From IMG/VR virus record IMGVR_UViG_3300045988_142085, positions 160,001 through 224,000 of that record: 64,000 bases of DNA; one strand, given 5' to 3'. The position numbers were made by a program, and so were the translations under genes. The first letter of the stretch is position 1, and each line of letters starts with the position of its first letter. This document shows, one piece after another, positions 25,294 through 50,554 of the stretch. The notes under the pieces are model-generated. The model had not been told where the DNA came from. It made no database searches and saw only the letters and a program-made list of their open reading frames with translations. The DNA is from a virus.

Positions 25294-25659
25294 TTAATAC
25301 ACTGAGCCTCCATTATCTTGACCATTTTCATCTGGGAAGATATCGCTCTTTAGTTCGCTTTCTTGGTATATTTCAGAACCGTAATCTGCAATCCAGCGAC
25401 CAGTAACAAGAGGACGATCCCCGTATGCTTCAATTATAACATAATCTCCGCCTTTTGGGAACCAATCATCAGGTGAATTTGTTTGTACTGGCATAGCAGG
25501 CTCAGTTATTGTTTCGCCATTTTGTGAAGTATACGTTACTGTACAAGTGCAAGTTTTAGGGTCAGATCCTAAGACTGACCCTTTCAACTTTGCAAACCCG
25601 TCATTACGGATCTGTTGTCCAGCATATGTATCTTTAAATTTATTCTGTATTACTGACAT
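25294..25659 (-). CDS. baseplate spike OB-fold protein, gpV/gp5-N-like (121 aa)
   Basis: The pattern G-x-V...C-x-V-x-V...ET...LP...WFPKGGDYVIIEAYGDRPLVTGRWI matches the OB-fold of P2 gpV-type spike proteins (...P-x-vGd-x-V-x-v-x-f-x-gGd...vlG). It sits directly after the tape-measure candidate, as in P2/Mu-like modules. Confidence 0.5.
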   Translation of the reverse strand: MSVIQNKFKDTYAGQQIRNDGFAKLKGSVLGSDPKTCTCTVTYTSQNGETITEPAMPVQTNSPDDWFPKGGDYVIIEAYGDRPLVTGRWIADYGSEIYQESELKSDIFPDENGQDNGGSVY

Positions 25660-28600
25660 TATGCACCGAGCTTAGGGATATTAACATTAACTTGATATAC
25701 CTTACCATCGTCATTATCGTATACTTGATAAGTTAACTCATCTTTTTCTTTTAATGTATCCATAATAACTTTAAGATTATCTTTAGATTCACCATGAGCA
25801 ATTAATGTAAAACCAAAACCGGATCCAGGGAATATTTTTTTGGTACCGAACAAATAACAACTTGTTAACGTTATATAATCATTCGATACTTTATTGATAT
25901 ATGTATTTTGGTCGGTCGTAGTCTTATAAGATAACATTTGTTCTGCTTGGAAAATAATCTTACGAAGAGTATTTAAAGCAAATGGATGTAACAATGGAGC
26001 ATCGACGATTTCATTGCCGTCGCCGTCTTTACCTTTAATGCCGATAACCTTAACAGGTTTACCGCCTTGGTTTACAGAGAATTCGACTGTATTCTTAGAC
26101 TCTTCATTATTTAACGCTTTTTCATGGCGTACAACGAAGAATTTAAATTGTTTAAAGATATCGAATTCAGGACCAGGAACAGGAACTAAAGGATCGAGAA
26201 TAGATGTATTATCTTTCTGAACATCTTCGATATTATGCATGAATTGTTCAGCTCTCATCTTAATCTCTTGTTTATCCTTATCGTTCTCTTCGTTATTACG
26301 CATTAACAATTGTTCGACAGAACGAATGCTGCCACGTTGTAATAAGCCATCGACATAGTTTTGATTTACGAGGTACTCATAATCGCCACCCATATTGTTA
26401 GCATACATGTTGCCGTCAGCATTTAATTGATAGCGCTGAAGAGCGTCGGCAGGACCGCCACCCATCGAAGCATTTAATATAAAGCTTAATGAACCAGCGA
26501 TAGGATGATATCCTTCTTGATCTTGGAAACGATGGTTAAATACAGAGTCCATAAGATCTAATACTTGACCACGTTTCCCCCAGTTAGGGCTCATAAAGAT
26601 TGTACCACTATTACCTGCCCATGCTGGTATAAATGGCATACCGCGTTTAAGTAAAGGAGTAACACTTAATGTTTTGTAATTCTGAATAAAATCAGAAATC
26701 ATGTCGCCCCATCTACCTAAAGTATAGGCGGCAGCGACCATTAATACGTTACCACCGATTTTGCTGCCAAAATTTAACGCAGAAGATAAATATCGACCGA
26801 TCGTAGAGCCAGCAATTTTATTAAACAAAGCACCAGCTTTGCTCTTCATCAAGATATCTTTAGACGTAGCATCGATTATCTTTTTACTTATTTCAGGTTT
26901 AGCTTTTAATGCGGCAAGAGTTTCTTGACCTTTTTTAGTATTATTTATACTTTGAACATCTTTAATTAGACTTTGAGTTTCTTTACTATAAGCTTTTAAT
27001 TTATCTATTCGTTTTTTATATTCTTTATTAAATGCTTCTTCAGCCTGTTGCTTATATAAACTTTCTAAGTTAGCTTTTCCACCACGGTCAAATTTATCCA
27101 AATCTTCGACGTTAGCAAGTTCTTCAATTTTTTTCTTTACAAAGTTATCTTTATTGACTTTAAAAACATCTGCTTCATTACTTAACTTTGTAAATTCTGG
27201 CATTCTAAGATTAAAAACTTTTTTAGAAATTTCTAAATTAGCTTTTTCGAAATTAGAGCTAGCTTCTGACCAAGCATTTAATACTTTAGAGATTCCTTCT
27301 CTTCCTTGAAGCTCATATTTACTTAGCGCTAGCGAAGATTTAATAGGATCATATTTTGCTAAACGAGTTTCGACAGCTAAAAGTTTAGCTTCTAGTTCTG
27401 CAATTTTTGCTTCGTCTTTCGCTTCTTTCGCAGCATCCAATGCAGTCTTAATACCTGCTTCTCTTGTTTTTATTTTTTTATAAAAACTTTCTAATGCATT
27501 TTGGCGTTTCTTTATTCTATTTAAATCATTTGAAACTTTTTCTGCATATTCTGCCGCAGCCCAGCCTTTTGCTCGAGCAAATAAGCCCCAACCATCATCG
27601 ATAATGGCACGAACAATATAAGCTCGTTGTAAATTATAAACACCGAGAGCATATATTGCGATACGCATTAATGTAGACGTAATAGCCATATTAACAGCTT
27701 GAGTCGTCTTATCATTAAGCACATCGACAATCGCATCTGGAGTAATTGTCGTAACAAAACCTGTCGTAGCCGATAGTGTATGAACGACTTCTCGAACTCT
27801 CGCTTGACCTGTCATGCTATTAGGCTCATCGAAAATAGAAATTCGGTCATGAGGTTTTACAGTAGGATCACCATAAACTACAAGATTGCCAGAATAAATT
27901 TGTTCGACAGATTTCTTTAATCGAGATAACGTCATTAATCGAGCAGTTTGTGCATGATTATGTTCAGGACCACCATAGTTATCTGGAGCAAAATTAGATA
28001 TTGCCCAAGAAGCAACGTTCTTTAAGCCTAGCTCTATACCTGTGCCAATAGCTCCACCAATGAGAGAACCAGCACCGGCTCCGACTGAACCACCTCTGGA
28101 TCCAATTGCACCACCGACAACCGAAGTAAATGCACCTGTAACTGTCGCATAGCTATCTAAAGAGCCGATTTCACTATCGATTCCGAATGTATTTTCAGAA
28201 GAAGTATGAACTTGAGTTCTACCATGTAACCATGTATCGACTACCATAGAACGTTGATACTCAGGATAAATATCACGATCGAAATAAATATCGGGAGTCG
28301 ATTTTTTAACTTCTTCAAACTGATACATACCTTTAGCTACTGTAGCTACTTTATTAGAATTAGTTTGAATTTGGTTAGATAAAATATCGTGGTCTGACCA
28401 ATACATATGGAATTGAGAATAAGGTTTTCGTTTTTCAAGAACATTTAATTGCTTGTTGTTCTTAATATATTTATAAGCATAATACCAATTAGGTAAGCCC
28501 ATAAATACAGTACTTCTAAATCCGAAGTAATCAGTTGCGCCAATATAAGATGGATTTGCACTTGCTGCAAATTGCAACATATCCCACACTGTTCGGCCTT

Positions 28601-31600
28601 GCGTTTTAATACTAATAAATTGATGACCTTGTTCTGGGGGATCGATACCGATAACACTTCCTAGTGAACGATACCAATGTTGTTGTCCTTGTTCTGAAGC
28701 ACCATTTTCAAACTGTAGACTATCACTATTAAATAAATTAGTAATATCGGTATTTTTTCTAAAGTTATAATAATGAGCAGAAGAGTCATTAGTTACTTCA
28801 TAAATATTTTGTACTGGTTCACCATTAACGAATATATCACGATAATATGGATCGCCATAATGATAAATACCGAATGGATTATTAGAGAATACTCTCGATA
28901 GAATATTCCAATTCTTCTCACGGAATAATTGACTTGCGTAGTTTTGATCTTGACATGTTAAGAATGAACTTACTAATACACGAGGACTTACGCCACCGAA
29001 AGATAAACCATAAGGAGATTCACCTAAGTATTTTACACCACGGTTTTTAATCTTATCGCCGAAATTATCTTCACGAATAGGGTTAGATAATTCTATGCCA
29101 TCGCCTTGACCGACGATACTTACTACGTCGCCACCTTGGATCTCAGTAACAGTACCGTTAAACATAACAGGTAACTTAGCTGCATCAGCAGAATAACCCA
29201 TGCGAATATGCATACGAGCACCGGCTACTAATTTAATAGAATTTCTCTCAGGTATTAACGCTTGTTTTTCACTTAAATTACGAACATAAGTACGAGGATT
29301 AAAAATACTATCGTATAGATTTTCAAGTCCGGCAACACCATATTGTAATTGTGTCGTAAAATTGTCGCCTTGTCCGTCGTCTTCATATTCAGCTAATATA
29401 TTTTGATATAAATTATTTAACTGAATAATAGCTGTATCGGCCGCAATATTTTTAGATTTAACGACTTGAATAGAACTTACTGCATTCGTACTATAGAAGC
29501 TATCATGCATCTTCCAGAATCCCGATGAAGCACCTTCATCGATAAACATAATCTGGAATGTCGGGAATCCTCGAAGCATCCTACCACGAACATCGGTTTG
29601 AACCATGTTAAGATATGAATCTCGAATGCGTCTTGCCAATGCTTTAGGAGTCATTGCATTTGCTTCTAATTCAAGTTGCTGCATAAATTCACGTTGAATT
29701 TGAGCGATAGGATTATCGGTTGCAATATCAATACCGAGCTCTTCGATTTTTTCTACGAGACCGGAAAGAACTAAACCATATAATAGTTTTCGCAAGCTAA
29801 CTTCGTCGTTTGTTAACGGAGCTGTCGTCGTAATATTCGGTGTAATTACTTTATGAGTTAACGCATTTAATGCATTATAATCACGAGTAACGATTTTTTT
29901 AATCAAAGAAGAATCTTTACACATCAACGATAAAGCCGTTGCTACGAATAATTTACCTTTAACAAATTTATCTTGATTATCTTTAACGAAGTTTTTAAGA
30001 GTTTTAACGTTCTTTTCTTGAACGTCGTTAGCAAGTTTCATATCCTTCATGAACTCATATGCAGAAGCTTCGCTTACAGCATTTTGGAACATGATATCCG
30101 TCATATAGTTAGGATAGATATTTTTCTTAATTAAAACACATAACCAGTATAAAACATTTCGTAAGAAAGCATGTTTTGCATAATTCATATCATGCATACA
30201 ATATTTCATATATTGAATTGTTTCATCGTGGTCGGATGTTTGATAATAAGGATCCAAGAAGTAATATCGATCAGAAGCTTCGAAAGTGAAGCCTTTATCT
30301 AAAAACTTTTTACGACGTTTATTATAATCGATCGGTAAGAATTGAAGCATAGGATTTTCTTCGAATTCTTTTTGAGTAAAGCAAGGAATACCGTAAGGGC
30401 CTAATTCAGTACAAGAACCATAACTATAAAAATCAGATGTGTCGTCTAAATGACGAACATAAGTTAAACCATTAATTGTATATCGTGTCGGCTTAAAGTT
30501 TTTTACGTTAAATTCTAAATCACTTTTTTTATCTTTAGAATCATCCTTATCTTTATTATAGTTAGGATCATTAAAGATACTATTTGATTTTCCGTTAAGT
30601 TTTACAGATTGCCCCCATAAGCCATATTGACCGCCATTTTCTTGAGCACCATTAGCTAAAGCTTGACCCATATACATAATAATGCTTTTTGCTTTTTCAG
30701 GTTCAAGATCAGTAGAGAACCCAGAAGCAAGTGCAGACCAAGCAAATTTATTTAACCAATCATTAATGTCGGCATTCCATTTGGAAGTTAAAGTAGTATC
30801 GACAGATTTTGTTTCGACAATAATATTTTTAAAATATTGAATTAAAGCTTCTTCAGAACCTTCATCTTCAATAGAAGTTTCAGATAAGAACTTAAGAGCT
30901 TTATCAGCTTCCCATTGGAATGTATTAATGCTATCAACGATTACAGATTTAAGAGCGTTTTCGCCGCCCTCTTTTTTAACCTCGTTGACTTTTTTCTCAG
31001 CGCCTTCTTTTACGTCATCACCAACGACATCAAATTCTGCATTTTTTTGAATATCGTTTTTAACGACAGGTGCAGCTTCTTCTACTTTTTCTTTGGCCTT
31101 ATCTGCTTCCTTTTGGCCATCTTCTGTGTTTAAGTTATGATATAACCATGCATAATAAGGTTCTAAGAAAGTAACGCCGATAGATTTACCGACCTTCCAT
31201 TGACCGGTCGCAATACCAGATTTGAAGAGTTTCATGCGTTGTTCGTTCTCTTCTTTTTTCATCTGATTTAATTTTTCTTGCGTTAACTGCCAATCTTTAG
31301 CCGTCATTTCAGATATGCCACCATTTTGTGCAATCATACCATGACGCATAGAATATTGAGCAGCCTCACTAAGATCGGAAAGTATTTTTAATTCACCAGA
31401 TGGATTACCGTCTTCATCTGGTTTGGCAAACATTTGTAACATCTTACTATCTTGCAAAATACAGTCTCTTAATAATTCCGAGAATAAATGTTCGTGATAG
31501 AAGAAATAAAAATCAGGATCGACAAATACTTGATCTCGAGGATTTTTATAACGAATGAACTCGAAGCCTAACTCGCCAAGCTCTTTAATCGTTGGCAACT

Positions 31601-34600
31601 CTAAATCTGGATATAATTCAGCTTTAGATAAATTTTGATCGATTTCGAAGTAGCCTAATGCGGCTTGCGCAGCACGTTGAGCCGTAGCTTCTTTAGATGC
31701 AAAATTAGATTGTTCGAATTGTTTATAGATAGCAAATCGATTACGAATCGTTCTATCAGTTTGGCGCAATGTTACATTAATTTGAAATAACCCAGGATAA
31801 TTTACGACAGTCGAAATCGATACTTGTTCGACGATTACTTCGAATATACCTAATAAGCGAGTGAATTCAGAATCAATTCTGAATGGATAACTCGGTAATG
31901 CATTCGGATATTTCTTTTTAAAATAAGAAATAATCTTCGGGATCTTATCGAAGCGATCGACAGTTTCTTTATCATAAGTCATTACAGAAAATGTTAACGT
32001 AGCATCTTGTCCGCCCATAAACTGAGGAGCCTGACCATGATATGTATTCAATGTCATGTTGGCATATGTATTAGAGAAGTTTGCTGTTAAACCTTGTACT
32101 AATACATCTTCTAAATACGTTACATATTGAATAGAGCCGATACGTTCAAATTCAGAATCTTCATAATTTTCATATGTCTCTTGATTGCCAGACATTTGAA
32201 CAGAACCATCAGCATTTTGTACAGCAGCAAATTGAGATGCACAATATTCTAAGAATTTAGAATCGCCATCATAAGGAGAATATTCTAATGTGCATTGACC
32301 ATTATTTTGCTTTAACACAATTCTAAAGTTAAATGCGTTATCGGCAAACACCATATCATAATAACTAGTTTCTAAGAACATTCCAGACTGATCGGTATTC
32401 TGAATATTATCAGACATGTTCTGATTGCCACCACCAGTTAAGGTGGAAACAAACTGTTGTCTTAATAATAAAGATTCATCTCGACTATTATAATCGACAC
32501 TCGGAATGATTTTAATTTTTAAATAATCATTATCTGGGTCTTCATCGAAACTGTACTGAGGTTTAGCTTGTCCGCCGCCAGCAATTGATAGAGCATAATC
32601 CTTAGCAGCTTTAGCTACGTCGATATGTTTTTCTAAGATAGAATAATCGGACGGAATATTTAATTTTTGTAAATAATCGACAATTTCACGACCAGCTGTT
32701 GACATTACAGAAGCTTTATCGCTATAATTAAATTTATATTTTTTAAGAATATTATTAATTTGATCGCTATGAATCGTTTTATAATATTGATTTGCGATCG
32801 CAAACAATTCTTTATCTTTTTCAGATGGACGATAATAGTTAGGAGCTTTATTATTACTATGAGTAAAAGTCTGTCTAACTTTCTCCATCTTAACAAGCTT
32901 ACCTTCGTCAGGCATATAAATATTAATTCTAGGATTTAATGTGTCGACCGGCATATAAGCAGATCGATTTGCGAACAATGTTTTCTTCATAAAATCTTTA
33001 GAAGAAATATTCATCTTTCGATCGTGAAGGTCTTGTCCTAATTGCAATGGTCGTTGAATATACCAACGTAATAAATCATAGTTGATTGTCTTTGCAAAGA
33101 AGTTGCGATAAATATCGACAACGCCATCTTGTAAGTCACGCTGTTTAGGAACTTGAGGCATAAATACTTGATAATCAAATTCTTTAAGCAACAGCGTTAC
33201 TTTTAATAATTTAGGATAGTTCGGAACTGTCGCTACCGACATCGATTCAAAACAAATAGCATCGATATCGAGAACTTCATTAATATATTTATTTTCGATT
33301 GGCATATATGGAGCAAAATGGAATTCAGATAGCAACGCCCGGAATCCATTCATATGATATACGACTTTTTTCTTTTTATCACTAAGATTTGTATACCACT
33401 CTACAGGTTGTCCGTTAATACCACGGTCTTCGTTAAAGTATAATTCTAATTGTAAAAATCGTTCAGGTTTTGCATTTTCAATATTAGCAGAACCTTTCGC
33501 ACGAAGTAACGGAACAGAATTTGTATAAGCTTGTGTTACCGTATTGATAGAAATAGGTGGAACAAATAACGTTACATCTCCGATTGTACAAGTCCAATCG
33601 GAGATAGAATTTAATCCTTTAGTAATGTTATTCCAACCAAACGCTTTATTCTGAATATCGTGACGATTATCGTATTGTGATGTAGCGTTCCATACTGCAT
33701 CAGTCCAAGCTTTCGTATCGTATTGATATGCCCAAGGTTTAAGATGAGGATTCGTAAAATCAGAATACTTTAAAATAGAAGTATTACGATGGCGAGCAAT
33801 GATATATTTATTTAAATTAATCCATTGTCCATCTTTATCTTTTACGAAAATAACAGCTAAGTTACGACGATAATGTTCTAAACCATATGCGTTAATGCCT
33901 GTTTCTTGGAATACGGTAGGATCTTGTCCAGTAAAGAATTTATTAAATGTATTAAAATAGTTAGCTAATAATCCATTACCAGGAAAGCTAATCATATTCT
34001 TAGGGTATGCCGTAGTTTGATCCTGTTTAGAAGAGCCATTGATATCGATAACGGCACGAACTTCTTGTGCGTTCTTTACCATATTTACGACATCATTAGC
34101 CGCAGCATATGCTACTTCTAATGTACCGTAATTAGTTCCGTCAGCCATTAAACCAAATACAGGTTTACGTCCATTTAATAATGTAGAAGATCCGCCAAAA
34201 CGTTTTTCGGTTAAATAATCATTTACTTGGATCCATTTATTGTCGAACTCGCCGATTTGAGCAATCGTAACAGTATCGCTATCTTTATAACGTTCCCATT
34301 TAGAACCGTTCTTATTGCTACTAGAATCATAAGCTTTCGTTAAAAAAGCTTGATAATTTTGAACGGCTTCACCGTATGTAACTTGTTTAACGTCAGTTGC
34401 ATATACGATAGACCAGTGATGAACTTCTGGTGCATCGTAGAATAAGAAACGGAAGCCCATATCATAATCAAGACTTCTATTTTCGTCTTTTACTTTGTTC
34501 GCATCCAGAACATCTTCTGTCGCTTTTTTATTGCCGGCTAACCATGCTCGCATGTTTTGCTGACCGACACACAGATATTCTAACAGTTCTGGATCTTTTA

Positions 34601-35030
34601 CTTCTGCTTTTCTTAAATCGGCATATAAAGTATCACCATCGACAAAACCAGCATGTAAATCTTCATCTGTAATTCTAAAAGCAGATGGAGGAAGGCTGAC
34701 CATAGCCAGCCCTCTCAATCTATCAATACCAGTGTTTTCTAATGGAGGATTTTCTTTATAGAACAAAGCCTGTTCTTTTGAATCGCCCATCTTTTTAGCG
34801 AGCTCTTCATAAATTCTCATGTCGACTGCGCCTTCTTCAAAGTCGGCTAATTCCGGAAGGCTCATCTGAGTATCTCGAACCATTTGGTCAAGCTCTTCTT
34901 TTGATCCTTCAGTCGGATTATTAGGAATATCTTCCTTTTTTGTCTCGACTTGATCGGAAGCCTTCTTGCCGACTTTTTGACCTAAGTGTTGAGTCGCATA
35001 GTTAACACCTGGCTTTTTATCTTCCGCCAT
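25659..35030 (-). CDS. giant protein (3123 aa), best tape-measure candidate
   Basis: ATG at 35028..35030 with AGGAG 7 nt upstream. The C-terminal ~900 aa combine Gly-rich segments (GAIGSRGGSVGAGAGSLIGGAIGTGIELGL), hydrophobic membrane-like helices (STLMRIAIYALGVYNLQRAYIVRAII; GNVLMVAAAYTLGRW) and long K/E/A coiled coils, which is tape-measure-like composition. It lies between the chaperone candidates and the spike gene. Function is inferred. Confidence 0.5.
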   Translation of the reverse strand: MAEDKKPGVNYATQHLGQKVGKKASDQVETKKEDIPNNPTEGSKEELDQMVRDTQMSLPELADFEEGAVDMRIYEELAKKMGDSKEQALFYKENPPLENTGIDRLRGLAMVSLPPSAFRITDEDLHAGFVDGDTLYADLRKAEVKDPELLEYLCVGQQNMRAWLAGNKKATEDVLDANKVKDENRSLDYDMGFRFLFYDAPEVHHWSIVYATDVKQVTYGEAVQNYQAFLTKAYDSSSNKNGSKWERYKDSDTVTIAQIGEFDNKWIQVNDYLTEKRFGGSSTLLNGRKPVFGLMADGTNYGTLEVAYAAANDVVNMVKNAQEVRAVIDINGSSKQDQTTAYPKNMISFPGNGLLANYFNTFNKFFTGQDPTVFQETGINAYGLEHYRRNLAVIFVKDKDGQWINLNKYIIARHRNTSILKYSDFTNPHLKPWAYQYDTKAWTDAVWNATSQYDNRHDIQNKAFGWNNITKGLNSISDWTCTIGDVTLFVPPISINTVTQAYTNSVPLLRAKGSANIENAKPERFLQLELYFNEDRGINGQPVEWYTNLSDKKKKVVYHMNGFRALLSEFHFAPYMPIENKYINEVLDIDAICFESMSVATVPNYPKLLKVTLLLKEFDYQVFMPQVPKQRDLQDGVVDIYRNFFAKTINYDLLRWYIQRPLQLGQDLHDRKMNISSKDFMKKTLFANRSAYMPVDTLNPRINIYMPDEGKLVKMEKVRQTFTHSNNKAPNYYRPSEKDKELFAIANQYYKTIHSDQINNILKKYKFNYSDKASVMSTAGREIVDYLQKLNIPSDYSILEKHIDVAKAAKDYALSIAGGGQAKPQYSFDEDPDNDYLKIKIIPSVDYNSRDESLLLRQQFVSTLTGGGNQNMSDNIQNTDQSGMFLETSYYDMVFADNAFNFRIVLKQNNGQCTLEYSPYDGDSKFLEYCASQFAAVQNADGSVQMSGNQETYENYEDSEFERIGSIQYVTYLEDVLVQGLTANFSNTYANMTLNTYHGQAPQFMGGQDATLTFSVMTYDKETVDRFDKIPKIISYFKKKYPNALPSYPFRIDSEFTRLLGIFEVIVEQVSISTVVNYPGLFQINVTLRQTDRTIRNRFAIYKQFEQSNFASKEATAQRAAQAALGYFEIDQNLSKAELYPDLELPTIKELGELGFEFIRYKNPRDQVFVDPDFYFFYHEHLFSELLRDCILQDSKMLQMFAKPDEDGNPSGELKILSDLSEAAQYSMRHGMIAQNGGISEMTAKDWQLTQEKLNQMKKEENEQRMKLFKSGIATGQWKVGKSIGVTFLEPYYAWLYHNLNTEDGQKEADKAKEKVEEAAPVVKNDIQKNAEFDVVGDDVKEGAEKKVNEVKKEGGENALKSVIVDSINTFQWEADKALKFLSETSIEDEGSEEALIQYFKNIIVETKSVDTTLTSKWNADINDWLNKFAWSALASGFSTDLEPEKAKSIIMYMGQALANGAQENGGQYGLWGQSVKLNGKSNSIFNDPNYNKDKDDSKDKKSDLEFNVKNFKPTRYTINGLTYVRHLDDTSDFYSYGSCTELGPYGIPCFTQKEFEENPMLQFLPIDYNKRRKKFLDKGFTFEASDRYYFLDPYYQTSDHDETIQYMKYCMHDMNYAKHAFLRNVLYWLCVLIKKNIYPNYMTDIMFQNAVSEASAYEFMKDMKLANDVQEKNVKTLKNFVKDNQDKFVKGKLFVATALSLMCKDSSLIKKIVTRDYNALNALTHKVITPNITTTAPLTNDEVSLRKLLYGLVLSGLVEKIEELGIDIATDNPIAQIQREFMQQLELEANAMTPKALARRIRDSYLNMVQTDVRGRMLRGFPTFQIMFIDEGASSGFWKMHDSFYSTNAVSSIQVVKSKNIAADTAIIQLNNLYQNILAEYEDDGQGDNFTTQLQYGVAGLENLYDSIFNPRTYVRNLSEKQALIPERNSIKLVAGARMHIRMGYSADAAKLPVMFNGTVTEIQGGDVVSIVGQGDGIELSNPIREDNFGDKIKNRGVKYLGESPYGLSFGGVSPRVLVSSFLTCQDQNYASQLFREKNWNILSRVFSNNPFGIYHYGDPYYRDIFVNGEPVQNIYEVTNDSSAHYYNFRKNTDITNLFNSDSLQFENGASEQGQQHWYRSLGSVIGIDPPEQGHQFISIKTQGRTVWDMLQFAASANPSYIGATDYFGFRSTVFMGLPNWYYAYKYIKNNKQLNVLEKRKPYSQFHMYWSDHDILSNQIQTNSNKVATVAKGMYQFEEVKKSTPDIYFDRDIYPEYQRSMVVDTWLHGRTQVHTSSENTFGIDSEIGSLDSYATVTGAFTSVVGGAIGSRGGSVGAGAGSLIGGAIGTGIELGLKNVASWAISNFAPDNYGGPEHNHAQTARLMTLSRLKKSVEQIYSGNLVVYGDPTVKPHDRISIFDEPNSMTGQARVREVVHTLSATTGFVTTITPDAIVDVLNDKTTQAVNMAITSTLMRIAIYALGVYNLQRAYIVRAIIDDGWGLFARAKGWAAAEYAEKVSNDLNRIKKRQNALESFYKKIKTREAGIKTALDAAKEAKDEAKIAELEAKLLAVETRLAKYDPIKSSLALSKYELQGREGISKVLNAWSEASSNFEKANLEISKKVFNLRMPEFTKLSNEADVFKVNKDNFVKKKIEELANVEDLDKFDRGGKANLESLYKQQAEEAFNKEYKKRIDKLKAYSKETQSLIKDVQSINNTKKGQETLAALKAKPEISKKIIDATSKDILMKSKAGALFNKIAGSTIGRYLSSALNFGSKIGGNVLMVAAAYTLGRWGDMISDFIQNYKTLSVTPLLKRGMPFIPAWAGNSGTIFMSPNWGKRGQVLDLMDSVFNHRFQDQEGYHPIAGSLSFILNASMGGGPADALQRYQLNADGNMYANNMGGDYEYLVNQNYVDGLLQRGSIRSVEQLLMRNNEENDKDKQEIKMRAEQFMHNIEDVQKDNTSILDPLVPVPGPEFDIFKQFKFFVVRHEKALNNEESKNTVEFSVNQGGKPVKVIGIKGKDGDGNEIVDAPLLHPFALNTLRKIIFQAEQMLSYKTTTDQNTYINKVSNDYITLTSCYLFGTKKIFPGSGFGFTLIAHGESKDNLKVIMDTLKEKDELTYQVYDNDDGKVYQVNVNIPKLGA

Positions 35031-35044
35031 AGAATCTCCTTTAT

Positions 35045-42802: not shown

Positions 42803-42814
42803 TGTTTAATCCTT

Positions 42815-45800
42815 TTATAAGAATGATAACGCTTTATCTATTTTGTAACCAATAACAGAAGTTACATTAGTTACTATATCTATTATACCATCTTGTTGCG
42901 TAGGATTCACCTGTATTTGTTTTTCAGTTAAACCGATACCACTTAATACAGTATTGATTTTAGCTCGGACAGTAATAGGATCATCGCCATTTCTAATATT
43001 TTCTATATTAGGGGCGTTGATAACTTCTGGATCTTCATAGGTCGAAGAATAAATACCGAAGTCTGCATATTGCATTCCTTCATTGTATATTACTTTCGCC
43101 TTAATATCTTCAAGGTTAGAAGATGCCTCCCAACCTTGCCATAATGGCCCAGGAAGATTGTGCGTCGTAAAGTACGATTCATTAGATTCTGTTTCAGTTT
43201 CTTCTTGATACCATACAAGTTTTAATGCTTTAGCTAATGATGGAGATACGTTACGTAAGATAGCTCGTCGTTGTTTTTCGTTAGTTACTTTAGCAAACTC
43301 GACAAAATATTCTTTTTCGGTACTAGGTAATGCACGAATAATATCGGAATATTCACTATCTTTATTTAACGCATATACAGTAGATTCAGCTACTTGATGA
43401 TACATAATAGCCTGTTCTGTCCATTCGCCAGCAGCAAGTGTCGTCATATCTTCGCTAAGACGACCGAATTTTTTATTAATCCATTGAGCTAATGGATCGT
43501 TAGACGGAGTACCAGAAGTTAATACGGATGCCATCATATCGGTAATCGATACATCGCCATCCATCTCGGCACGAAGAGCTGCTTGATGTTGATATAACTT
43601 ATCGACATCAACGCCTTCTTCAGATTTAGCTTTTTCTTTAGCAGCTTCATATAGACCCATATATTTTATATAACGGAGTCTATCGAAGTATTCTTCTGTA
43701 TCCCAACGCTTTTCTACGTTATCAGGAGTATATACATGGTCGAGACCTAACGCCTCTGTAATCGGATTATTCTTAGCTAATGCGATCGCTAAACCAGTAC
43801 CAGCAAAAGCTGCAGCTTGTAGCATACGACTAGCACGAGTTCGCTTAGCAAAATCGACTAATTTTTCAATACCTTTATTATCGACATTGCCAAAGATACC
43901 TTCGGCAAATCTACCGATAATAGATTCGTCAGAAACAAATTTATCGAATAGATTTAAATGGCTTCCAATATCATAACCCATACGTCCCCATGCATATGTC
44001 GCATACATAGGATCGTCTGTCGATGTCGCCATTGCAAATGCATTACCGGCAAATCTAAACGCACGAGAAAGTTTTTCTTTACGTTCTACGGCATTAGCAC
44101 CAACAAAAGTAAAACGACCTGTGATTTCACCGGCTAATGCTGGACCGTCTAAATATGTCGAGGCAAATTTAGCAACAGCTAATCTAGATTTAGAAGCATT
44201 ATCTAAAGCTCGACTATTTAGTCCTTTATAATAACGATATGCACTATCGGCAACCAAATCTTTTACGAACGATGTTTTACTTTGTTCGAATGTCGGAACA
44301 AGCATCGTATCGATGATATCTTCCCATGAAGCAAAGCCGCTACCGTATAATTGATCACTACGATATTCTTCTAGTGGGTCATTAATTCTCATGAATTGAC
44401 TATGCAAAATCGGAATTTGTGCATGCGTAACTAATTCGGCAGCACTACCAAAAATACGTCCAAATGTATTGTAGTTAGCATATGCACCGGCAGCAGAACT
44501 GTCGTCCATATCGTATTCAGCTAACCCGACTTCTCGCAATGTATCCGAGATATTCTCGCCGTTTAAAAATAACGCTGCACGAATCGGAGCTTGTGGTGCA
44601 TCTGGATTATCGGTACGTTCTTCATCGTCGATACGCATTGTCACTCGTTGTCCAGGTTGGATAACTTGCAATAATTGTTGTTTCGACATGAAGCCGTTTT
44701 CTTTAAATTTTACACCGGCAATTTGATATAAACGATCGTCGCCAGCAATTTTAAATTTGCCGTTAGATAATACTTCTTCGATATGCCCTTCTTGAGACAC
44801 AGTCGTTTTTCCTAAGAATTTATAATTAAAGAAATCATGTTTTTTACCCTGATGTTTAACCATCTCTTCAGTATCTTGCAATACTTTTTTGGCTTCGTCA
44901 GAGTTCATCATCTTAACGATTTGTTTCCAATATTTATACTCTGGACTATTCGGAGCAATGTCGGCTAATATTTTATAACGGTCAATAGCACCATAGCCAT
45001 CAGATGCAAATTGATCTGGATGTAAAGCATTGATAGCTTCATATCCTTTACCAGGAAGACGAGCTTCTGCATTAGGTAGAGATGTATTATGCGTAGCAAA
45101 ACCAACAACACAAAAAGAATTATTTTGATTTACTTGATAGCCATATACTTCTTTAATAGTATTTATTTCTTTAATGTCTTCAATTCTTAAATAAAGATAT
45201 CCATTATTTATATAATGATGAGAAGATTCTCTTGCTCTGTTATTTATTGGTAATAATGATTTACCGAATAATAATTCAGACAGTATAGAAGCTTTTTTGC
45301 CCCTAATATTCAAACTATAAGATATTCCAGCTGTTACAAGATATTTAGTAATTCTTATTTTTTTAGAAGTTTTATTGTGAATATTTATTGATCCAACAAT
45401 ATTAAATCTTAATAATAATTTTCTTACTTGATACAACAATTTTTTATTGCAAGATGTAATACTAATCTTTTCTGTTTCCTTGCCATATCCAGATTTCATT
45501 ACAAAGTTAGATCCATCGCCACATATATAGCCTTCTAATAATCCTAGAACGCATTCTTCTTTTGCATCCCAGAAGAATTCTGGAATCTTCTTATCATGAG
45601 CACCTTTATTAAATAATACATCTAATAAAGATGCAATTATAGATGATCCAAAACGAGAATAAGCACCATTTGTAACGCCTGATCTTTTAAAAGAAAAGTT
45701 AATATATGAATCTATTTGCTTAAATCCTAAGAATGCATTATATGCATAATCTCGCTCATTAATATTATGAGCCATTCCAATGGAGCATCCATTGTTCCAG

Positions 45801-48800
45801 CCTTCTGCAAGGTATAAACCAAATGCATAACATATTTGTTTTGTTAATACAATTTTTCTAGGAATTCTTCTTATTTTTCTATTATGCTTTATGTAAGCTT
45901 GAACACTTTCGTAAACTCTATCATTCCAGTTCATTTTTTCTAAGAGTTTTTTTCTTTCTCCTCGATTAAATTTTGGAACGCCATATTTTTCAAAATATTC
46001 ATATATTTCAACAAATTGTCTATTTTTTGTATTAATTTTATATAAATATTTTTCTGTTGAAATATATTCTGGTAATAATAATCCTAAATCTAATATTATT
46101 TCTTGATTTTTAGATTTTGGAATAGGATAAGCGACATAGTTACCAATTTTAATGTCTTTTACTTTTTTCCAAGATAATCTATTTTTCAATAAATTAATAT
46201 CATATAATTTATATTTTTTTAAATGAATATTATGTTTATCTAATTTATAATCATAAATTAAATTATCTTGGAACATTTTTTTCCATAATTGACAAACATC
46301 ATTTATAGAAATATTAACAAGATCAGCTAAATCTTTTTTAGATGTTATTCCATTCTTTAATGCATTTAATACAGTATTTGCTCTTTTGTAATATGATAAA
46401 GAATTTCCAGATAATTCTTTTGTTACATTATTAGAAGATTCAGTAACTAATAATGGATGATTTTCAGAAAATTCATAATCAAATGCAAATAAACTATTAA
46501 CTTTTAACGAATAAACTTTTTCTTTTAATTCTATTTTACGACAGACAATTTTATTTACGACTGTATTTTGACCAGTATGATCAATAATTATTGATTGATT
46601 TTCTACTACTTCATCAGCAGCTAAATAGTCAAGATTGCCTATTTCTACCATTGTATTTTTTGAAATACAGTATGCATCGCCCATATAGAATTTTTCTGGA
46701 AGCCAAGCATGTTGATCTGCCATTGTATTCATCAACGGATTAACACGTCGTCTTCTCGAAAATTCCGGTAAGAAACGACGGCTAATTTCGGCTGTTTCAC
46801 CGCCGAGACCACCTATACCAGCATCCCAGAATTGACGAGTGAATGAATCGATATCGCCAGCATTAGCAATGAATTTAGATTCGTCACGGCCGAATGCTTG
46901 AGATCCGATATAACCATAAATACCGGTTAATAATCTTGAAGTAGTTTGTAATTCATCTAAATAATCACGACCACCATTTGAATTCATTAAATTATTATAT
47001 AGGTCGGCATTATTTAAAATTTCTTCCAACGATCCTTTAGGTCTACCACGTTTAACACGTTGTTGTATATACATACCATTAGGATTAGTATAAGGAGAAC
47101 TACCAGAATAAATAGCATTATTCATAGCAGAAATAGTACTTCCTGTGCCATTAGTAACAGGCTGTAAACTTGCTACTTCAGGATTTACTGTTCCGTCAGG
47201 ATTAATATACTTAACGTAATCGGCTGCCGATGCGTACATCGGTGCTTGTGGTGCATATTGTTGATCGCCACTTTGCACATATTCATTATCAGTCGGATGA
47301 TCGAATGCCGTAAAATCATATACGCCAAGACGTCCATTTTGGAATATTAGATAACGAGTATCTTGAGACTGCTCTTGTATTTGCTGGTTCATATGGTACA
47401 TGACTGCTTTAACGTCACGACCGAACCACATTCTATCCTCATGGTATTTTTTCTTAGGCTTAATTATTTCACCTAATGTCGGATTAAGAATTAAACCTTG
47501 AAGAGTATTAGATTCAAACAAAGGACCTGATTCTAAATAAGGTCTATCTTCTGAATGCATCTCTTCTAACCAATAAGGATTAAGAGCATATATTAATGGA
47601 GATAAAGGGTTAGATAATGTCGGTATTGGACTATGCATCCATTTATTAAAGTAACCGCCATAAATACCTTCAGTCTTATAATCAGACTTAGCTAACTTTA
47701 AACTATTATCTTCCCAATATGAAATACTAGAACCACGGAATTCATTCGTAGAACCCCATACCCAATAACGACCAGCACGAATTGGATCCTTACCGTTTTG
47801 ATAATAATCTAATCGTTCCTCATAAGATTGATAAGGGCGATAATCGCCACTGATATACTGGGCCATTGGGTTAGCCATTTTAGCTAACTTAAATACATCG
47901 GTTAACCCTGTAGCATCAGTAAATTTTCTAAAGCCTAAATCGATATTCGCTAAACCAGTTTGGAAATTTTCATTTAAATTAAATGTGTCGTCTGCCCAGT
48001 CAAATTGTGTATATAAAAAACTAGCAGGCAATACACGTTTAAATAAAAGTTTGTCGATTATTTCTAAGCTGCTTCTTGAGGCATTTTCATGTAGTCCAAG
48101 ACCATGACCAAATGTAAGAACTCGAGCAACTGCTCTTGTTGCAACGTTATTTACGACACCGGTAAAAGCACCTGGATCAAGCATATTAAGGCCGCCACTT
48201 AATCGGCTAACCATCTTATATAAAGTCGACCCTGCTACAGATAAATCATTTGCTGTGCTATTATTAGAAAAATCTAAATGGCCACCAGTAACTTTACCTA
48301 ACCATGTTGTTTGACTTAATTTAGAATTCGCAAACAATCCTTTAGCCGAATCAGAAATTCCTTGCATTAATCCATTAAGATCGCCACTATTCCAAGAAGT
48401 AATTATCTTCTTAACATCGAGCGATTTTCTTGCTAAAACTGGAGCAGCAGCATTTCCCTTTTTACCGAAATCATAATGGATATCTTTGCCATTACCTAAA
48501 TAATGCCCGAGTATTCTATCGGCTTCAGGACTATCGTCTAATGTATCTTGTATTTTCTTAAATACGGCAGAACCAATATCTTGCTTATCTCGATTAAAGT
48601 TATGTCGATCTTTAATAACGTTAATACCAGATTCTTTTTTATACTTTTCTAAAGTATACATATCTTTTAGTTTTTGTTTTTCACCTGGAGATATGTTTAA
48701 AGAATCTATTTTAGCATAAGCTTCTGCTTGTGTTTTGCCTAAAGAATCGACAGCATTTTTAACGACGGCTTCATTAACTGTTTCTTCGACAGATTTAATT

Positions 48801-50554
48801 TTATATAAAGCTTCACTACCGATACCGATACCGTCATCGCGTAAACGAGCATTAATTTTTTTGCCGTCGCTAGCAGCTTTAACGACACTTAATAAATCTA
48901 AGTTATCGACCTGATCAACGTCGATATCCCGCAAGATTCTTCTTTTAGCACTTTCACTTTTTGCATGATATACATCACGTATTTTAGAAAGTGTATCTTT
49001 TTTAATGCCTTCTTTTGATGCGGCTAAATCGAGAACGATTTTCTCAGTATTTTTTTCTAAGTCGATATCGATACTTTGTACGGCACGAGCATGAGAATAG
49101 GCACGTCTGCCTAATGCTGCTAATTCTGATTCGCTTAGCTGGTCTATATTAGTATTTCTTAATGCGTATAAATTATTGCCGTCTACATCAGTTAGTCTTT
49201 TAGCGCCTTCACTTCTGCCAAGCTGAGCCCAATTAGTTTTCTCTTGTTGAACACCATATTGACTCATTATACGACCATGATGAACTATATCGTCATTAGT
49301 AGAATGCCAATTGTATCCGCTAATATCCATTTGTTCCATCTTACCGGTCGTAAGATCTTGGCGATATAATTTGTCTCGATTACGAACTAATAATGTTCCT
49401 TCCTTTTGGAAGTTAGCCATACCGAGTTTAAACTGAGCGTTAGAATAAACATCGACGCCTAACTGATTTCGAGGCGATAAATCATCGAGACCAAATAACT
49501 TACCAGCTAATGTATCGCCGACAATTCCTTTTGCTTCAGATTTTATTTTATCTAAATTAGGAGTATTTAATACTTCGCCATCGACATACTTAGTGCTATC
49601 ATTATATTTAGCATTTTCAAATAAATCTGCTAAGAAAGCTGTTCTACTATCACTGCGTATTTTATCGAGAGCATTATCGACATCGATGATATCTCGTTTA
49701 CCGTTACGAGATACGATCGGAACATCGAGAGCACCATTATCGATTGCTGCATCAGCTTGCTTTTGTTTTACAAAATCGGCTAATGCAAAATCATGAATTT
49801 CTCCAGTCTTTTTAGCTTGATGCTTTTCTAGTAGTTCTCCAATATCTCTGATTTGATTCTCGATAAAATTCTCGGTAATCTTTTCGCCGCGGCCACCAAC
49901 ACTTTGCCAATCTTCAAAACTTTGTTTTCTTGTTAAGTTTCGAATAGTTCGTAATGCTACATTTGTATCATCAAATTCTGCATACTCTGACTCGCCATCC
50001 ATAACGACGTCTCTTAATGTATTTTTAAGACGTTCAGAGAACCCGACAGTGCCGTCATATCGTTGAGATGGAACGATATTATTAATAGCGTCGACCATGT
50101 TGTCGATCGTTGCTTGATTGACGCCGGCATCTTTAAAATCGGTTGCTATCGAATCGATTACTTGAGCATGATATAATCCTTGTAAATTCTTTTCTGCATC
50201 TGCTTGTAAATTTAATGTACGATTAAGAGTGTCACGAAGAATATCGGTTTGTTTGTCGGCCGTTACTGCAGATGAAGGTTTAGGAAAATTTCCTCTTAAT
50301 GCTTGATTAGCATATCCTTCTAACTCAGATAATGTAATAGCATTAGCGCCATCATCCGTTATTTTTGAGAGTCTACGCTCTACTTGTCCTATAATAGGAT
50401 CGAGTTTAGATAAAACTCTCGCCCCTCTTTTTGTTCTAGAAAAAGCAAAAGCGGCCCCGACGAGTCCGCCGGTAGCCGCTACTGTATCAACAAAAGAGTC
50501 GGCAGGACTATCAGAAGGAGCTTCTATTCCTTTAAATAAATAATCGTCAGCCAT
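42815..50554 (-). CDS. giant protein (2579 aa) interrupted by a 528-aa intein; extein function unknown
   Basis: ATG at 50552..50554. Long uninterrupted ORF; intein at residues 1296-1823 (see the separate feature). Preceded by two small chaperone-like genes. Confidence 0.55.
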   Translation of the reverse strand: MADDYLFKGIEAPSDSPADSFVDTVAATGGLVGAAFAFSRTKRGARVLSKLDPIIGQVERRLSKITDDGANAITLSELEGYANQALRGNFPKPSSAVTADKQTDILRDTLNRTLNLQADAEKNLQGLYHAQVIDSIATDFKDAGVNQATIDNMVDAINNIVPSQRYDGTVGFSERLKNTLRDVVMDGESEYAEFDDTNVALRTIRNLTRKQSFEDWQSVGGRGEKITENFIENQIRDIGELLEKHQAKKTGEIHDFALADFVKQKQADAAIDNGALDVPIVSRNGKRDIIDVDNALDKIRSDSRTAFLADLFENAKYNDSTKYVDGEVLNTPNLDKIKSEAKGIVGDTLAGKLFGLDDLSPRNQLGVDVYSNAQFKLGMANFQKEGTLLVRNRDKLYRQDLTTGKMEQMDISGYNWHSTNDDIVHHGRIMSQYGVQQEKTNWAQLGRSEGAKRLTDVDGNNLYALRNTNIDQLSESELAALGRRAYSHARAVQSIDIDLEKNTEKIVLDLAASKEGIKKDTLSKIRDVYHAKSESAKRRILRDIDVDQVDNLDLLSVVKAASDGKKINARLRDDGIGIGSEALYKIKSVEETVNEAVVKNAVDSLGKTQAEAYAKIDSLNISPGEKQKLKDMYTLEKYKKESGINVIKDRHNFNRDKQDIGSAVFKKIQDTLDDSPEADRILGHYLGNGKDIHYDFGKKGNAAAPVLARKSLDVKKIITSWNSGDLNGLMQGISDSAKGLFANSKLSQTTWLGKVTGGHLDFSNNSTANDLSVAGSTLYKMVSRLSGGLNMLDPGAFTGVVNNVATRAVARVLTFGHGLGLHENASRSSLEIIDKLLFKRVLPASFLYTQFDWADDTFNLNENFQTGLANIDLGFRKFTDATGLTDVFKLAKMANPMAQYISGDYRPYQSYEERLDYYQNGKDPIRAGRYWVWGSTNEFRGSSISYWEDNSLKLAKSDYKTEGIYGGYFNKWMHSPIPTLSNPLSPLIYALNPYWLEEMHSEDRPYLESGPLFESNTLQGLILNPTLGEIIKPKKKYHEDRMWFGRDVKAVMYHMNQQIQEQSQDTRYLIFQNGRLGVYDFTAFDHPTDNEYVQSGDQQYAPQAPMYASAADYVKYINPDGTVNPEVASLQPVTNGTGSTISAMNNAIYSGSSPYTNPNGMYIQQRVKRGRPKGSLEEILNNADLYNNLMNSNGGRDYLDELQTTSRLLTGIYGYIGSQAFGRDESKFIANAGDIDSFTRQFWDAGIGGLGGETAEISRRFLPEFSRRRRVNPLMNTMADQHAWLPEKFYMGDAYCISKNTMVEIGNLDYLAADEVVENQSIIIDHTGQNTVVNKIVCRKIELKEKVYSLKVNSLFAFDYEFSENHPLLVTESSNNVTKELSGNSLSYYKRANTVLNALKNGITSKKDLADLVNISINDVCQLWKKMFQDNLIYDYKLDKHNIHLKKYKLYDINLLKNRLSWKKVKDIKIGNYVAYPIPKSKNQEIILDLGLLLPEYISTEKYLYKINTKNRQFVEIYEYFEKYGVPKFNRGERKKLLEKMNWNDRVYESVQAYIKHNRKIRRIPRKIVLTKQICYAFGLYLAEGWNNGCSIGMAHNINERDYAYNAFLGFKQIDSYINFSFKRSGVTNGAYSRFGSSIIASLLDVLFNKGAHDKKIPEFFWDAKEECVLGLLEGYICGDGSNFVMKSGYGKETEKISITSCNKKLLYQVRKLLLRFNIVGSINIHNKTSKKIRITKYLVTAGISYSLNIRGKKASILSELLFGKSLLPINNRARESSHHYINNGYLYLRIEDIKEINTIKEVYGYQVNQNNSFCVVGFATHNTSLPNAEARLPGKGYEAINALHPDQFASDGYGAIDRYKILADIAPNSPEYKYWKQIVKMMNSDEAKKVLQDTEEMVKHQGKKHDFFNYKFLGKTTVSQEGHIEEVLSNGKFKIAGDDRLYQIAGVKFKENGFMSKQQLLQVIQPGQRVTMRIDDEERTDNPDAPQAPIRAALFLNGENISDTLREVGLAEYDMDDSSAAGAYANYNTFGRIFGSAAELVTHAQIPILHSQFMRINDPLEEYRSDQLYGSGFASWEDIIDTMLVPTFEQSKTSFVKDLVADSAYRYYKGLNSRALDNASKSRLAVAKFASTYLDGPALAGEITGRFTFVGANAVERKEKLSRAFRFAGNAFAMATSTDDPMYATYAWGRMGYDIGSHLNLFDKFVSDESIIGRFAEGIFGNVDNKGIEKLVDFAKRTRASRMLQAAAFAGTGLAIALAKNNPITEALGLDHVYTPDNVEKRWDTEEYFDRLRYIKYMGLYEAAKEKAKSEEGVDVDKLYQHQAALRAEMDGDVSITDMMASVLTSGTPSNDPLAQWINKKFGRLSEDMTTLAAGEWTEQAIMYHQVAESTVYALNKDSEYSDIIRALPSTEKEYFVEFAKVTNEKQRRAILRNVSPSLAKALKLVWYQEETETESNESYFTTHNLPGPLWQGWEASSNLEDIKAKVIYNEGMQYADFGIYSSTYEDPEVINAPNIENIRNGDDPITVRAKINTVLSGIGLTEKQIQVNPTQQDGIIDIVTNVTSVIGYKIDKALSFL
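45086..46669 (-). mobile_element. intein with LAGLIDADG homing-endonuclease domain (528 aa) inside the 2579-aa protein
   Basis: N-terminal junction MGDAY|CISKNTMVEIG (Cys1 codon at 46667..46669). C-terminal junction ...NNSFCVVGFATHN|TSLPN (His-Asn codons at 45086..45091, +1 Thr). Two LAGLIDADG motifs (ICYAFGLYLAEGW and LLGLLEGYICGDGSN). In frame: 3885 nt from the ORF start to Cys1; intein is 1584 nt. Confidence 0.85.

Follow-up and report, generated by a model that had tools for sequence, protein, structure and literature searches.

The stretch of DNA analysed here, a window of 64,000 nucleotides (nt) covering positions 160,001 to 224,000 of the IMG/VR virus record IMGVR_UViG_3300045988_142085, is coded almost entirely on its minus strand, as seen in the map of open reading frames (ORFs), and contains in its tail module three consecutive giant genes, here called G1, G2 and G3. 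Our main subject is G2, the middle giant, whose predicted domains point to a polymerase delivered through the phage tail. The three genes together span 24,896 nt, or 38.9% of the window; each starts with ATG, with a Shine-Dalgarno sequence (AAGGG, AAGGA and AAGGAG) 6-9 nt upstream, and they are separated by gaps of 12 nt (G1-G2) and 14 nt (G2-G3). The three giant ORFs are genuine and not products of chance, because they extend over 7.7-9.4 kb in DNA of 33-38% GC and all three have homologues. A preliminary description of this DNA had reported the three ORFs, with their sizes, start signals and spacing, between tube/chaperone and baseplate genes, an intein in one of them and a DYDGDQ motif in another. 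The ORF map and the BLASTP and PHROGs matches of the flanking genes bear this out, with the intein lying in G1 and DYDGDQ at amino acids (aa) 2131-2136 of G2; the description flagged this motif without identifying it as the signature by which two-barrel RNA polymerases (RNAPs) bind metal. It had also considered that the three might be paralogous repeats. All-against-all BLASTP gave no match below an E value of 0.04, and the three are thus not paralogues. The giants and the genes that define their position are as follows (window coordinates, with gp numbers referring to Bacillus phage 0305phi8-36).

57537-60599, upstream of the giants: tail sheath (phrog_16991, 1.1e-53; BLASTP homologue of gp139)
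50577-51380, minus strand: tail assembly chaperone homologue of the gp143/gp144 type, 267 aa, adjoining G1 upstream (BLASTP to gp144 6.6e-13, to gp143 4.1e-9)
42815-50554, minus strand: G1, 2579 aa, gp145-family giant and first gene past the tail chaperones (ORF call)
35045-42802, minus strand: G2, 2585 aa, multidomain giant in the tape-measure position (ORF call)
25659-35030, minus strand: G3, 3123 aa, giant homologue of the gp147 baseplate hub (ORF call)
21962-22753, downstream of the giants: baseplate-wedge-like gene

Comparison of this locus with other phage genomes shows that the three giants form a tail-core module that is conserved among contractile-tailed jumbo phages akin to 0305phi8-36. 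In that phage the annotated order is sheath gp139, tube gp140, tube paralogue gp141, gp142, chaperones gp143 and gp144, gp145, gp146, gp147 and the gpV-like gp148. The order inferred for the window is sheath, tube, chaperones, G1, G2, G3 and baseplate, with the tube-like ORFs matching gp140 and gp141 by BLASTP. The two loci are thus alike in gene order and gene sizes, G1 corresponding to gp145 and G3 to gp147, and their chaperone, tube and sheath genes are homologous. The 0305phi8-36 record annotates gp145 (1930 aa) as "virion structural protein", gp146 (2537 aa) as "hypothetical tape measure protein" and gp147 (1903 aa) as "baseplate hub protein", and notes each of the three as a virion protein by mass spectrometry. 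The gp145/gp146/gp147 trio was published in 2007 (Thomas et al. 2007; Hardies et al. 2007, PMC2147016), in work that also identified gp143 and gp144 as a two-gene tail chaperone, called gp146 the tape measure from a correlation with tail length and, by hidden Markov model analysis, placed gp147 in the T4 gp27/P2 gpD hub family (PMC2147016). A tblastn search with G1 matched six phage records, including Edson, vB_BceM_WH1 (WH1), vB_BauM_KLEB27-3 (KLEB27-3) and MTATph1, and similar loci occur on two metagenomic contigs (L002 and L003).

Edson: 2025, 2515 and 2319 aa
WH1: gp096, gp095 and gp094, annotated as virion structural proteins
KLEB27-3: gp031 plus gp033, gp034 and gp035; gp031, gp033 and gp034 annotated as structural, gp035 as putative baseplate
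Moorella MTATph1: trio with a transposase interrupting the middle gene
L003: 2143, 3203 and 3676 aa
L002: 2540 and 3191 aa

In MTATph1 the middle giant (17669-25025) is apparently disrupted by the transposase gene CDS0028, and its fragments of 1309, 252, 38 and 313 aa are gp146-like rather than G2-like. The arrangement of three giants is a hallmark of the tail core in this phage group that is already in the literature.

The slot that G2 occupies is that of gp146, between the chaperones and the hub and baseplate genes and one gene removed from the chaperones. G2 belongs to a small family. An exhaustive phmmer search of 1.84 billion representatives recovered seven proteins and a profile search of a 5.8-billion set recovered five, while GenBank phages contained no relative at BLAST level. 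P0001-P0004 are 84-94% identical to G2, and P0005, P0127 and P0128 (the last with 3203 aa) are 30%, 29% and 27% identical. Because so few relatives were found, the G2 alignments are shallow; in the family alignment 6.5% of the columns are invariant, with strong local peaks. From its N terminus to its C terminus, G2 consists of a DEDDh exonuclease-like domain, a long unassigned middle, a β′-like RNAP module, a hydrophobic segment and, at the very end, a domain of high conservation. The corresponding features, which include two double-psi β-barrels (DPBBs), one of them a candidate, all lie on the minus strand.

41798-42625, minus strand, G2 aa ~60-335: motif set of a DnaQ-like DEDDh 3'-5' exonuclease (motif conservation)
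38513-38845, minus strand, G2 aa ~1320-1430: candidate β-like DPBB-B, with [ED]G[ST]A at 1327-1330 and AKxxxFG[KR] at 1413-1420
36353-37345, minus strand, G2 aa ~1820-2150: region predicted to resemble the N-terminal half of RNAP β′, ending in DPBB-A
36398-36526, minus strand: catalytic signature R2093-Y-P2095 ... D2131-Y-D2133-G-D2135 (RxP-x35-DxDGD), at ~81% of the G2 length
35048-35401, minus strand, G2 aa 2468-2585: hydrophobic Gly/Ala-rich segment VLGAMAALGSSILVAGYG, Q/N-rich linker and ~75-aa C-terminal domain

All two-barrel RNA polymerases share a DPBB-A signature in which RxP is followed after about 35 residues by DxDGD. In the G2 family R2093, P2095, D2131, D2133, G2134 and D2135 are invariant among sequences 21-30% identical, and 11 of the 43 columns of the signature segment are invariant, compared with the 6.5% seen overall. 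A strict pattern, [RK].P.{30,42}D.D[GA]D, matched once per protein, at 78-83% of the length, in G2, P0002, P0005, P0127, P0128 and the middle giants of Edson and KLEB27-3; WH1 gp095 also has a single match, at 78%. The same pattern recovers the true active sites of Escherichia coli β′ (R425...D460-464) and of gp96 of phage P23-45 (R741...D779-783), and the G2 catalytic loop, TNQLMAKGKGLDYDGD, resembles that of gp96, VNQEYAKSTGVDFDGD. In a PDB profile search the G2 segment was aligned on the NADFDGDQ of phiKZ gp55, at an E value of only 0.79. When the G2 family was compared by hhalign with single sequences, the top matches to β′, DnaQ and gp96 fell on the expected catalytic motifs, with E values of 0.06-0.14. 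The Arg, the Pro and the three Asp of the signature are among the eight invariant residues of two-barrel RNAPs (Ruprich-Robert and Thuriaux, PMC2919709), and the authors of the P23-45 study filtered for viral two-barrel RNAPs with "[RK]xPx{20,100}DxDxD" (PMC10770324, Supplementary Data 4), of which the strict pattern used here is a narrower form.

An AlphaFold2 model of G2 aa 1340-2340 has a mean predicted local distance difference test (pLDDT) score of 49.9, with values of 60-87 over aa ~1820-2150, the region that ends in the signature. When this model was compared with the PDB using Foldseek, the top 50 matches were all RNAP largest subunits. The best is the N-terminal half of β′ from the AR9 nonvirion RNAP (7s00_d, E 2.4e-4, probability 1.0), and the others include phiKZ gp55, bacterial β′, a plastid RpoC1-type subunit and Pol I A190. 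Because of this uniform set of matches, we regard the predicted DPBB fold of G2 in a β′/Rpb1-like context as secure at the level of the model, and from the motif and the match length the RNAP type of barrel is favoured. A second model, of aa 1180-2330, was worse than the first, with a mean pLDDT of 44.9. Downstream of DPBB-A, the place of the bridge helix and trigger loop in two-barrel polymerases, lie two further conserved blocks, AGxxYNxxKN (2208-2217) and ExxLSxKN (2254-2261), in a region where the models are unreliable.

Two-barrel polymerases all need a second, β-like barrel, which supplies two basic residues and an acidic one. In G2 a candidate for it is provided by the two motifs listed above for DPBB-B, which are conserved in the family and resemble the "EDS" loop and the basic pair of β/Rpb2. 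They stand 87 residues apart, a spacing that fits a DPBB-B with no flap insertion, and Edson has analogues of them in FEGMSI ... KFLTDANHR. Comparison of the G2 family with the single sequence of E. coli β by hhalign returned nothing. A search of the rest of the window for a β-like RNAP subunit also found none, the other large ORFs being baseplate- or fibre-like (Big_6, BspA-type leucine-rich repeats).

The N-terminal region of G2 contains, with typical spacing, the three motifs of a DEDDh exonuclease: ExoI, FFDIET (D75, E77); ExoII, GFNSQFFD (N215, D220); and ExoIII, HDAGAD (H316, D321). All six residues at the catalytic positions are invariant in five divergent sequences that are 21-30% identical, and the motifs are colinear and in the same order in Edson, KLEB27-3 and WH1. 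The best hhalign match of the G2 family to E. coli DnaQ, taken as a single sequence, covers ExoII only (E 0.1). The assignment rests on the motifs, since the region has no match among Pfam or PDB profiles, and we describe the N terminus as a putative DnaQ-like DEDDh exonuclease-like domain with presumed activity.

The middle giants of Edson (GAKEdson_0920), WH1 (gp095) and KLEB27-3 (gp034) share with G2 its slot, its architecture, the N-terminal DEDDh motifs and an RYP...D[HY]DGD signature at 78% of their length. Their similarity to G2 differs in being at the profile level only: hhalign aligns the G2 family with the Edson/KLEB subfamily over the exonuclease region (aa 174-417, E 8e-4) and, colinearly, over the DPBB-A region (E 4e-3). 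In the GenBank records these proteins are labelled as virion or structural proteins and bear no polymerase or exonuclease annotation. In contrast, gp146 of 0305phi8-36 lacks both the RxP...DxDGD and the DEDDh motifs and has no detectable similarity to G2, and the Moorella middle protein likewise lacks both motif sets.

Conservation in G2 is much higher over the final ~116 residues than elsewhere. Among homologues 21-30% identical, 35 of 116 columns are invariant (30%, compared with 6.5% overall), and the ~75-aa domain at the very end is nearly identical. The domain is preceded by the hydrophobic segment of aa 2468-2496, with a hydropathy peak of 1.48. Both gp146 and the Edson protein have a C-terminal layout comparable to that of G2, and the C termini of these two match each other by BLAST (1.8e-4). 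This end of G2 could serve to dock the protein on the hub, or might signal assembly or ejection.

The third giant, G3, is most probably the baseplate hub, a homologue of gp147 that has been enlarged by a C-terminal extension with predicted membrane-active and coiled-coil parts. BLASTP aligns aa 1808-2441 of G3 with residues 839-1417 of gp147 (3.5e-59), with further matches at 1.1e-15 and 6.9e-10, and phrog_20474 matches aa 1805-2531 (4.5e-149). In scans of the three giants against Pfam, PHROGs, NCBIfam, PADLOC and the PDB, this match and those to the G1 intein were the only genuine ones. Two regions of G3 stand out.

27708-29618, minus strand, G3 aa 1805-2441: conserved core and hub-homology region (BLASTP, PHROG and dense invariant columns in a seven-sequence alignment)
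26706-27701, minus strand, G3 aa 2444-2775: hydrophobic helix, ~230-aa coiled-coil-like stretch and second Gly-rich hydrophobic segment (hydropathy and composition)

In the composition map a Gly-rich hydrophobic segment occupies aa 2291-2336, the hydrophobic helix aa 2444-2477 and the coiled-coil-like stretch aa 2483-2713. The corresponding C-terminal position in gp147 holds NlpC/P60 and M23 peptidase domains (PMC2147016); G3 differs in this respect, since no peptidoglycan hydrolase domain was detected in it. G3 lies directly upstream of the baseplate genes, with synteny in six relatives, and its homologues in L002 (3191 aa) and L003 (>3300 aa) come after the G2 homologues. The link to P2 gpD was not reproduced when the G3 family was compared with the single gpD sequence (hhalign E 0.58), and hmmsearch against the PDB gave no hub match. 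The hub assignment therefore rests on the homology to gp147, the gene position and the published analysis. In the N-terminal region of G3 (~34300-34550, profile positions 160-241) we also observed a nonsignificant PDB profile match to staphylococcal thermonuclease (E 0.33), which recalls the nuclease domain reported at the N terminus of the BtI1 homologue of gp147.

G1 belongs to the gp145 family (BLASTP 1.4e-40, 9.7e-29 and 3.6e-23). It has 331 homologues, most of them intein-free proteins of 2049-2052 aa encoded on ~230 kb contigs, and no member of the group is without one, whether or not its middle protein has the polymerase motif. Its alignment contains more than 130 invariant columns across sequences 23-41% identical, arranged in dense motif blocks. 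Outside the intein G1 has no Pfam, PHROG or PDB match. The intein itself is a feature of its own.

45086-46669, minus strand, G1 aa 1296-1823: class-1 intein of 528 aa with a LAGLIDADG homing endonuclease (Pfam PF14528, PF14890)

Its Pfam matches are LAGLIDADG_3 (PF14528, 1.2e-8) and Intein_splicing (PF14890, 1.2e-5), and its termini are C1296 (Cys1) and H1822-N1823, followed by T1824 at the +1 position. Removal of aa 1296-1823 leaves a protein of 2051 aa that aligns ungapped, at 97.2% identity, with the intein-free homologue P0009. By these sequence criteria the insert is a precisely delimited class-1 intein with a LAGLIDADG homing endonuclease. Among the homologues listed, 2 of 120 contain it. 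The intein splits the most conserved block of G1, NP..N.M..W.P...GD[AP]Y | ..GE.RLPGE.YE..LHPD...DR[FY].ILADVAP.S, where the bar marks the break. The G1 homologue of KLEB27-3 (13436-20589) consists of gp031 and gp033, parted by the 211-aa ORF gp032 exactly at this motif, and gp145 of 0305phi8-36 has an insertion of ~230 aa just downstream of the site. Thus three different insertions target one conserved site in G1, and the intein and the KLEB27-3 interruption mark a functionally critical, unannotated motif. An NCBIfam match to "RNA polymerase subunit A''" on G1 aa 1548-1758 was discarded as an artefact; it lies wholly inside the intein and reflects the intein-bearing archaeal A''. Nor is G1 supported as a β-like subunit, with G1 followed by G2 mirroring rpoB followed by rpoC. 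It has no profile match to β, and G1 homologues accompany middle proteins that lack the polymerase motif in 0305phi8-36 and MTATph1. G1 is probably located in or at the tail lumen.

Collectively, these data lead us to favour, as probable although far from assured, a reading in which G2 is the counterpart of P23-45 gp96, a virion polymerase that reaches the host through the tail, but belongs to a jumbo phage with a contractile tail and has an exonuclease-like domain in addition; we infer its activity from the predicted domains. By analogy with the structural annotation of WH1 gp095 and KLEB27-3 gp034 and with the mass spectrometry of gp146, the giants would be part of the virion in this phage also, and G2 may in addition serve as the ruler of tail length. 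G2, and probably also G1, would be loaded in extended form into the tail tube with the help of the chaperones and anchored on the hub. Contraction of the sheath would then expel G2 and G1 ahead of the DNA, and the hydrophobic segments would insert into the host membrane. On the cytoplasmic side the polymerase module would refold and transcribe the genes that enter first, as shown for P23-45 gp96, and the exonuclease domain may act on 3' ends of nucleic acids. Polymerase activity and ejection of G2 are both presumed in this scheme.

Several observations weigh against this reading. The gene directly following the chaperones is G1, not G2, and the tape-measure assignment of gp146 is itself a correlation of lengths. 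Homology of G2 to gp146 was sought by BLASTP, phmmer --max and hhalign, all of which were null, so that what the two share is the comparable C-terminal layout. G2 as a whole has no significant match in Pfam, PHROGs, NCBIfam, PADLOC or the PDB by phmmer or hmmsearch; its exonuclease region has none in Pfam, NCBIfam or PDB hmmsearch; and no profile match to an RNAP, exonuclease or tape-measure family reached significance with Pfam, NCBIfam, PHROGs, PDB hmmsearch or hhalign. The second barrel is not confirmed, consisting of candidate motifs for which pLDDT is below 50 in both models and which have no β profile match. Overall confidence is low in both models of G2 (the mean pLDDT values given above, with a predicted template modelling score of 0.30), because the alignments hold only five sequences. 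Finally, the RNAP of gp96 is N-terminal, with DFDGD at 779 of 5002 residues, whereas the module of G2 lies near the C terminus, at ~81% of the length.

Long-tailed phages mostly carry the tape-measure gene immediately after the chaperones. G1 occupies this usual place, has hydrophobic segments near its N terminus (aa 18-40) and C terminus (aa 2241-2262), and is found in all members of the group, even those in which the middle protein is devoid of the polymerase motif. G1 might therefore be the true tape measure, with G2 an enzyme kept in the tail lumen or in the head until it is ejected and G3 the hub, a division into ruler, cargo enzyme and hub that we hold to be possible but doubtful. As a tape measure, however, G1 would be unusually conserved, with its more than 130 invariant columns at 23-41% identity, and inteins and introns target one G1 motif, which speaks for a site that is catalytic or closely packed and not for a ruler. 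For G2, searches for a tape-measure domain gave no significant Pfam, PHROG or NCBIfam match (Tape_meas_lam_C, E 0.57), a composition scan found no coiled-coil-like stretches, and the modelled part mixes strands and helices.

The preliminary description had instead taken G3 to be the tape measure, on the grounds that it alone had the composition of one, and had proposed G1 and G2 as extra cargo extruded alongside, in a potentially undescribed arrangement recalling crAss-like and some jumbo phages. Within its C-terminal ~800 aa, G3 indeed has hydrophobic segments rich in Gly and a coiled-coil-like part of ~230 aa, and G2 does look like an ejected, tail-delivered enzyme, so that these parts of the proposal stand. 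Composition, however, does not single out G3, because G1 and G2 also have hydrophobic segments (hydropathy and composition map: the two of G1 just given and aa 2468-2496 of G2). G3 is moreover the homologue of the gp147 hub (3.5e-59), which is linked to T4 gp27 and P2 gpD, it sits in the hub position directly upstream of the baseplate genes, and it is G2, with its DYDGDQ motif, that occupies the tape-measure slot. The claim of novelty falls as well, because the same trio is present in 0305phi8-36, published in 2007, and in Edson, WH1, KLEB27-3, MTATph1 and distant metagenomic relatives. No crAss-like or phiKZ-like cargo family was matched by PHROGs, Pfam or tblastn. We therefore consider a G3 tape measure with two cargo proteins quite improbable. 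Two other proposals concern the nature of the G2 barrel. It might be a DPBB that acts on the cell wall, like those of RlpA, MltA or expansins, or else a degenerate relic, in a G2 that is a structural tape measure with a lytic domain; with the motif and the match length favouring the RNAP type, this appears unlikely. Alternatively, instead of an RNAP, G2 could be a DNA polymerase or primase of the two-barrel type that carries its own proofreading exonuclease, PolD-like in function and delivered with the genome; we judge this very unlikely.

Other features of the window lie outside the three giants. The tail tube gene is apparently split (55864-57481, minus strand), with an exon-1-like ORF at 57248-57481 (77 aa) and an exon-2-like ORF at 55864-56184, the latter matching gp140 aa 182-240 (6.7e-18). 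The ~1.1 kb between them holds a LAGLIDADG-type endonuclease ORF (56355-57017; phrog_4645, 1.7e-30), which is flanked by matches to the Rfam family Intron_gpI at 57004-57276 (E 7e-6) and 56360-56454 (E 4.5e-5), both under the gathering score. A group I intron encoding a homing endonuclease is the probable cause of the interruption. In PHROGs the tube-like proteins (51964-52602, 54328-55572 and 55864-56184) bear the label "major head protein" (phrog_9206), while BLASTP to gp140 and gp141 identifies them as tube or tube paralogue; the phrog_9206 label is misleading for this phage group. Farther downstream, large ORFs at 1356-2897 and 5420-10540 match the BspA-type leucine-rich repeat (PF13306, 9.3e-10) and, weakly, the bacterial Ig domain Big_6. 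Receptor-binding or fibre proteins are their likely products, a hint that the host belongs to the Firmicutes or is gut-associated.

Comparison of G2 with the known virion polymerases places the favoured reading in context. P23-45 gp96 is a 5002-aa tape measure whose N-terminal ~1100 residues form an active, clamp-less two-barrel virion RNAP for pre-early genes, and its authors proposed that this RNAP acts at a membrane pore formed by the rest of gp96 (PMC10770324). G2 resembles gp96 (Chaban et al. 2024, PMC10770324; PDB 8H2M/8H2N) in the tape-measure slot, the catalytic loop and the concept, although the sequence likeness is limited to that loop and is not significant (hhalign E 0.057). The two differ in other respects. 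P23-45 is a siphovirus with an 84-kb genome, whereas the G2 group consists of contractile-tailed jumbo phages of ~180-230 kb. In gp96 the RNAP is followed by membrane and metallopeptidase domains; in G2 no peptidase was detected with Pfam, the module is followed by the hydrophobic segment of aa 2468-2496, and the DEDDh exonuclease-like domain is an addition. The split multisubunit RNAPs of phiKZ and AR9 (PDB 7S00, 7OGP) provide the best Foldseek matches, through the N-terminal halves of their β′ subunits, and the AR9 virion RNAP also uses DYDGD. However, these enzymes are made of four to five separate polypeptides encoded outside the tail module, and their virion copy is thought to travel with the head contents; no β-like partner was found in this 64-kb window. 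The giant virion RNAPs of crAss-like (phi14:2 gp66) and N4-like phages are similar to G2 in being very large, packaged and ejected polymerase proteins for early genes, but they belong to podovirus-like virions and are encoded outside the tape-measure slot, and the N4 enzyme is T7-like, not two-barrel. No sequence similarity of the giants to the crAss-like or N4-like RNAPs was detected.

A further difference concerns RNAPs encoded elsewhere in these genomes. 0305phi8-36 encodes a separate YonO-like RNAP, gp99, the only one noted in that phage by Iyer et al. 2021 (PMC7824862), and tblastn found no gp99 homologue in Edson, WH1, KLEB27-3 or MTATph1. Because 0305phi8-36 combines gp99 with a middle giant that lacks the motif, while Edson, WH1 and KLEB27-3 have the motif and no detectable gp99, the free-standing RNAP and the tail-borne module may, at the sensitivity of tblastn, be complementary in distribution. 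A stronger formulation would make the G2-type proteins the first tail-lumen-delivered two-barrel polymerases of contractile-tailed jumbo phages, uniquely coupled within one chain to a DnaQ-like exonuclease for proofreading or nucleic-acid processing and injected before the genome, possibly acting as PolD-like DNA polymerases or primases and replacing the YonO-like RNAP in this lineage; we give this version little credence.

P23-45 gp96, reported in 2024, is the sole characterised tape-measure-fused RNAP, and the association was called previously unsuspected by its authors (PMC10770324). For the tail giants of the 0305phi8-36 group, we found no description of a polymerase or exonuclease module in the searchable literature, and an earlier description elsewhere is possible. 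If G2-type proteins are active, polymerase delivery by fusion to the tail core would occur also in contractile-tailed jumbo phages of Firmicutes, including the cultivable Edson, WH1 and KLEB27-3, and the different domain order would imply independent evolution or heavy rearrangement. A concrete question would then be by what means a folded polymerase of ~2000 aa, together with an exonuclease, gets through a tail tube enclosed in a sheath. Such activity would also assign a role to some of the ~25 kb of "dark" giant genes of this phage group, and may explain why 0305phi8-36 keeps a separate YonO-like RNAP and its relatives do not.

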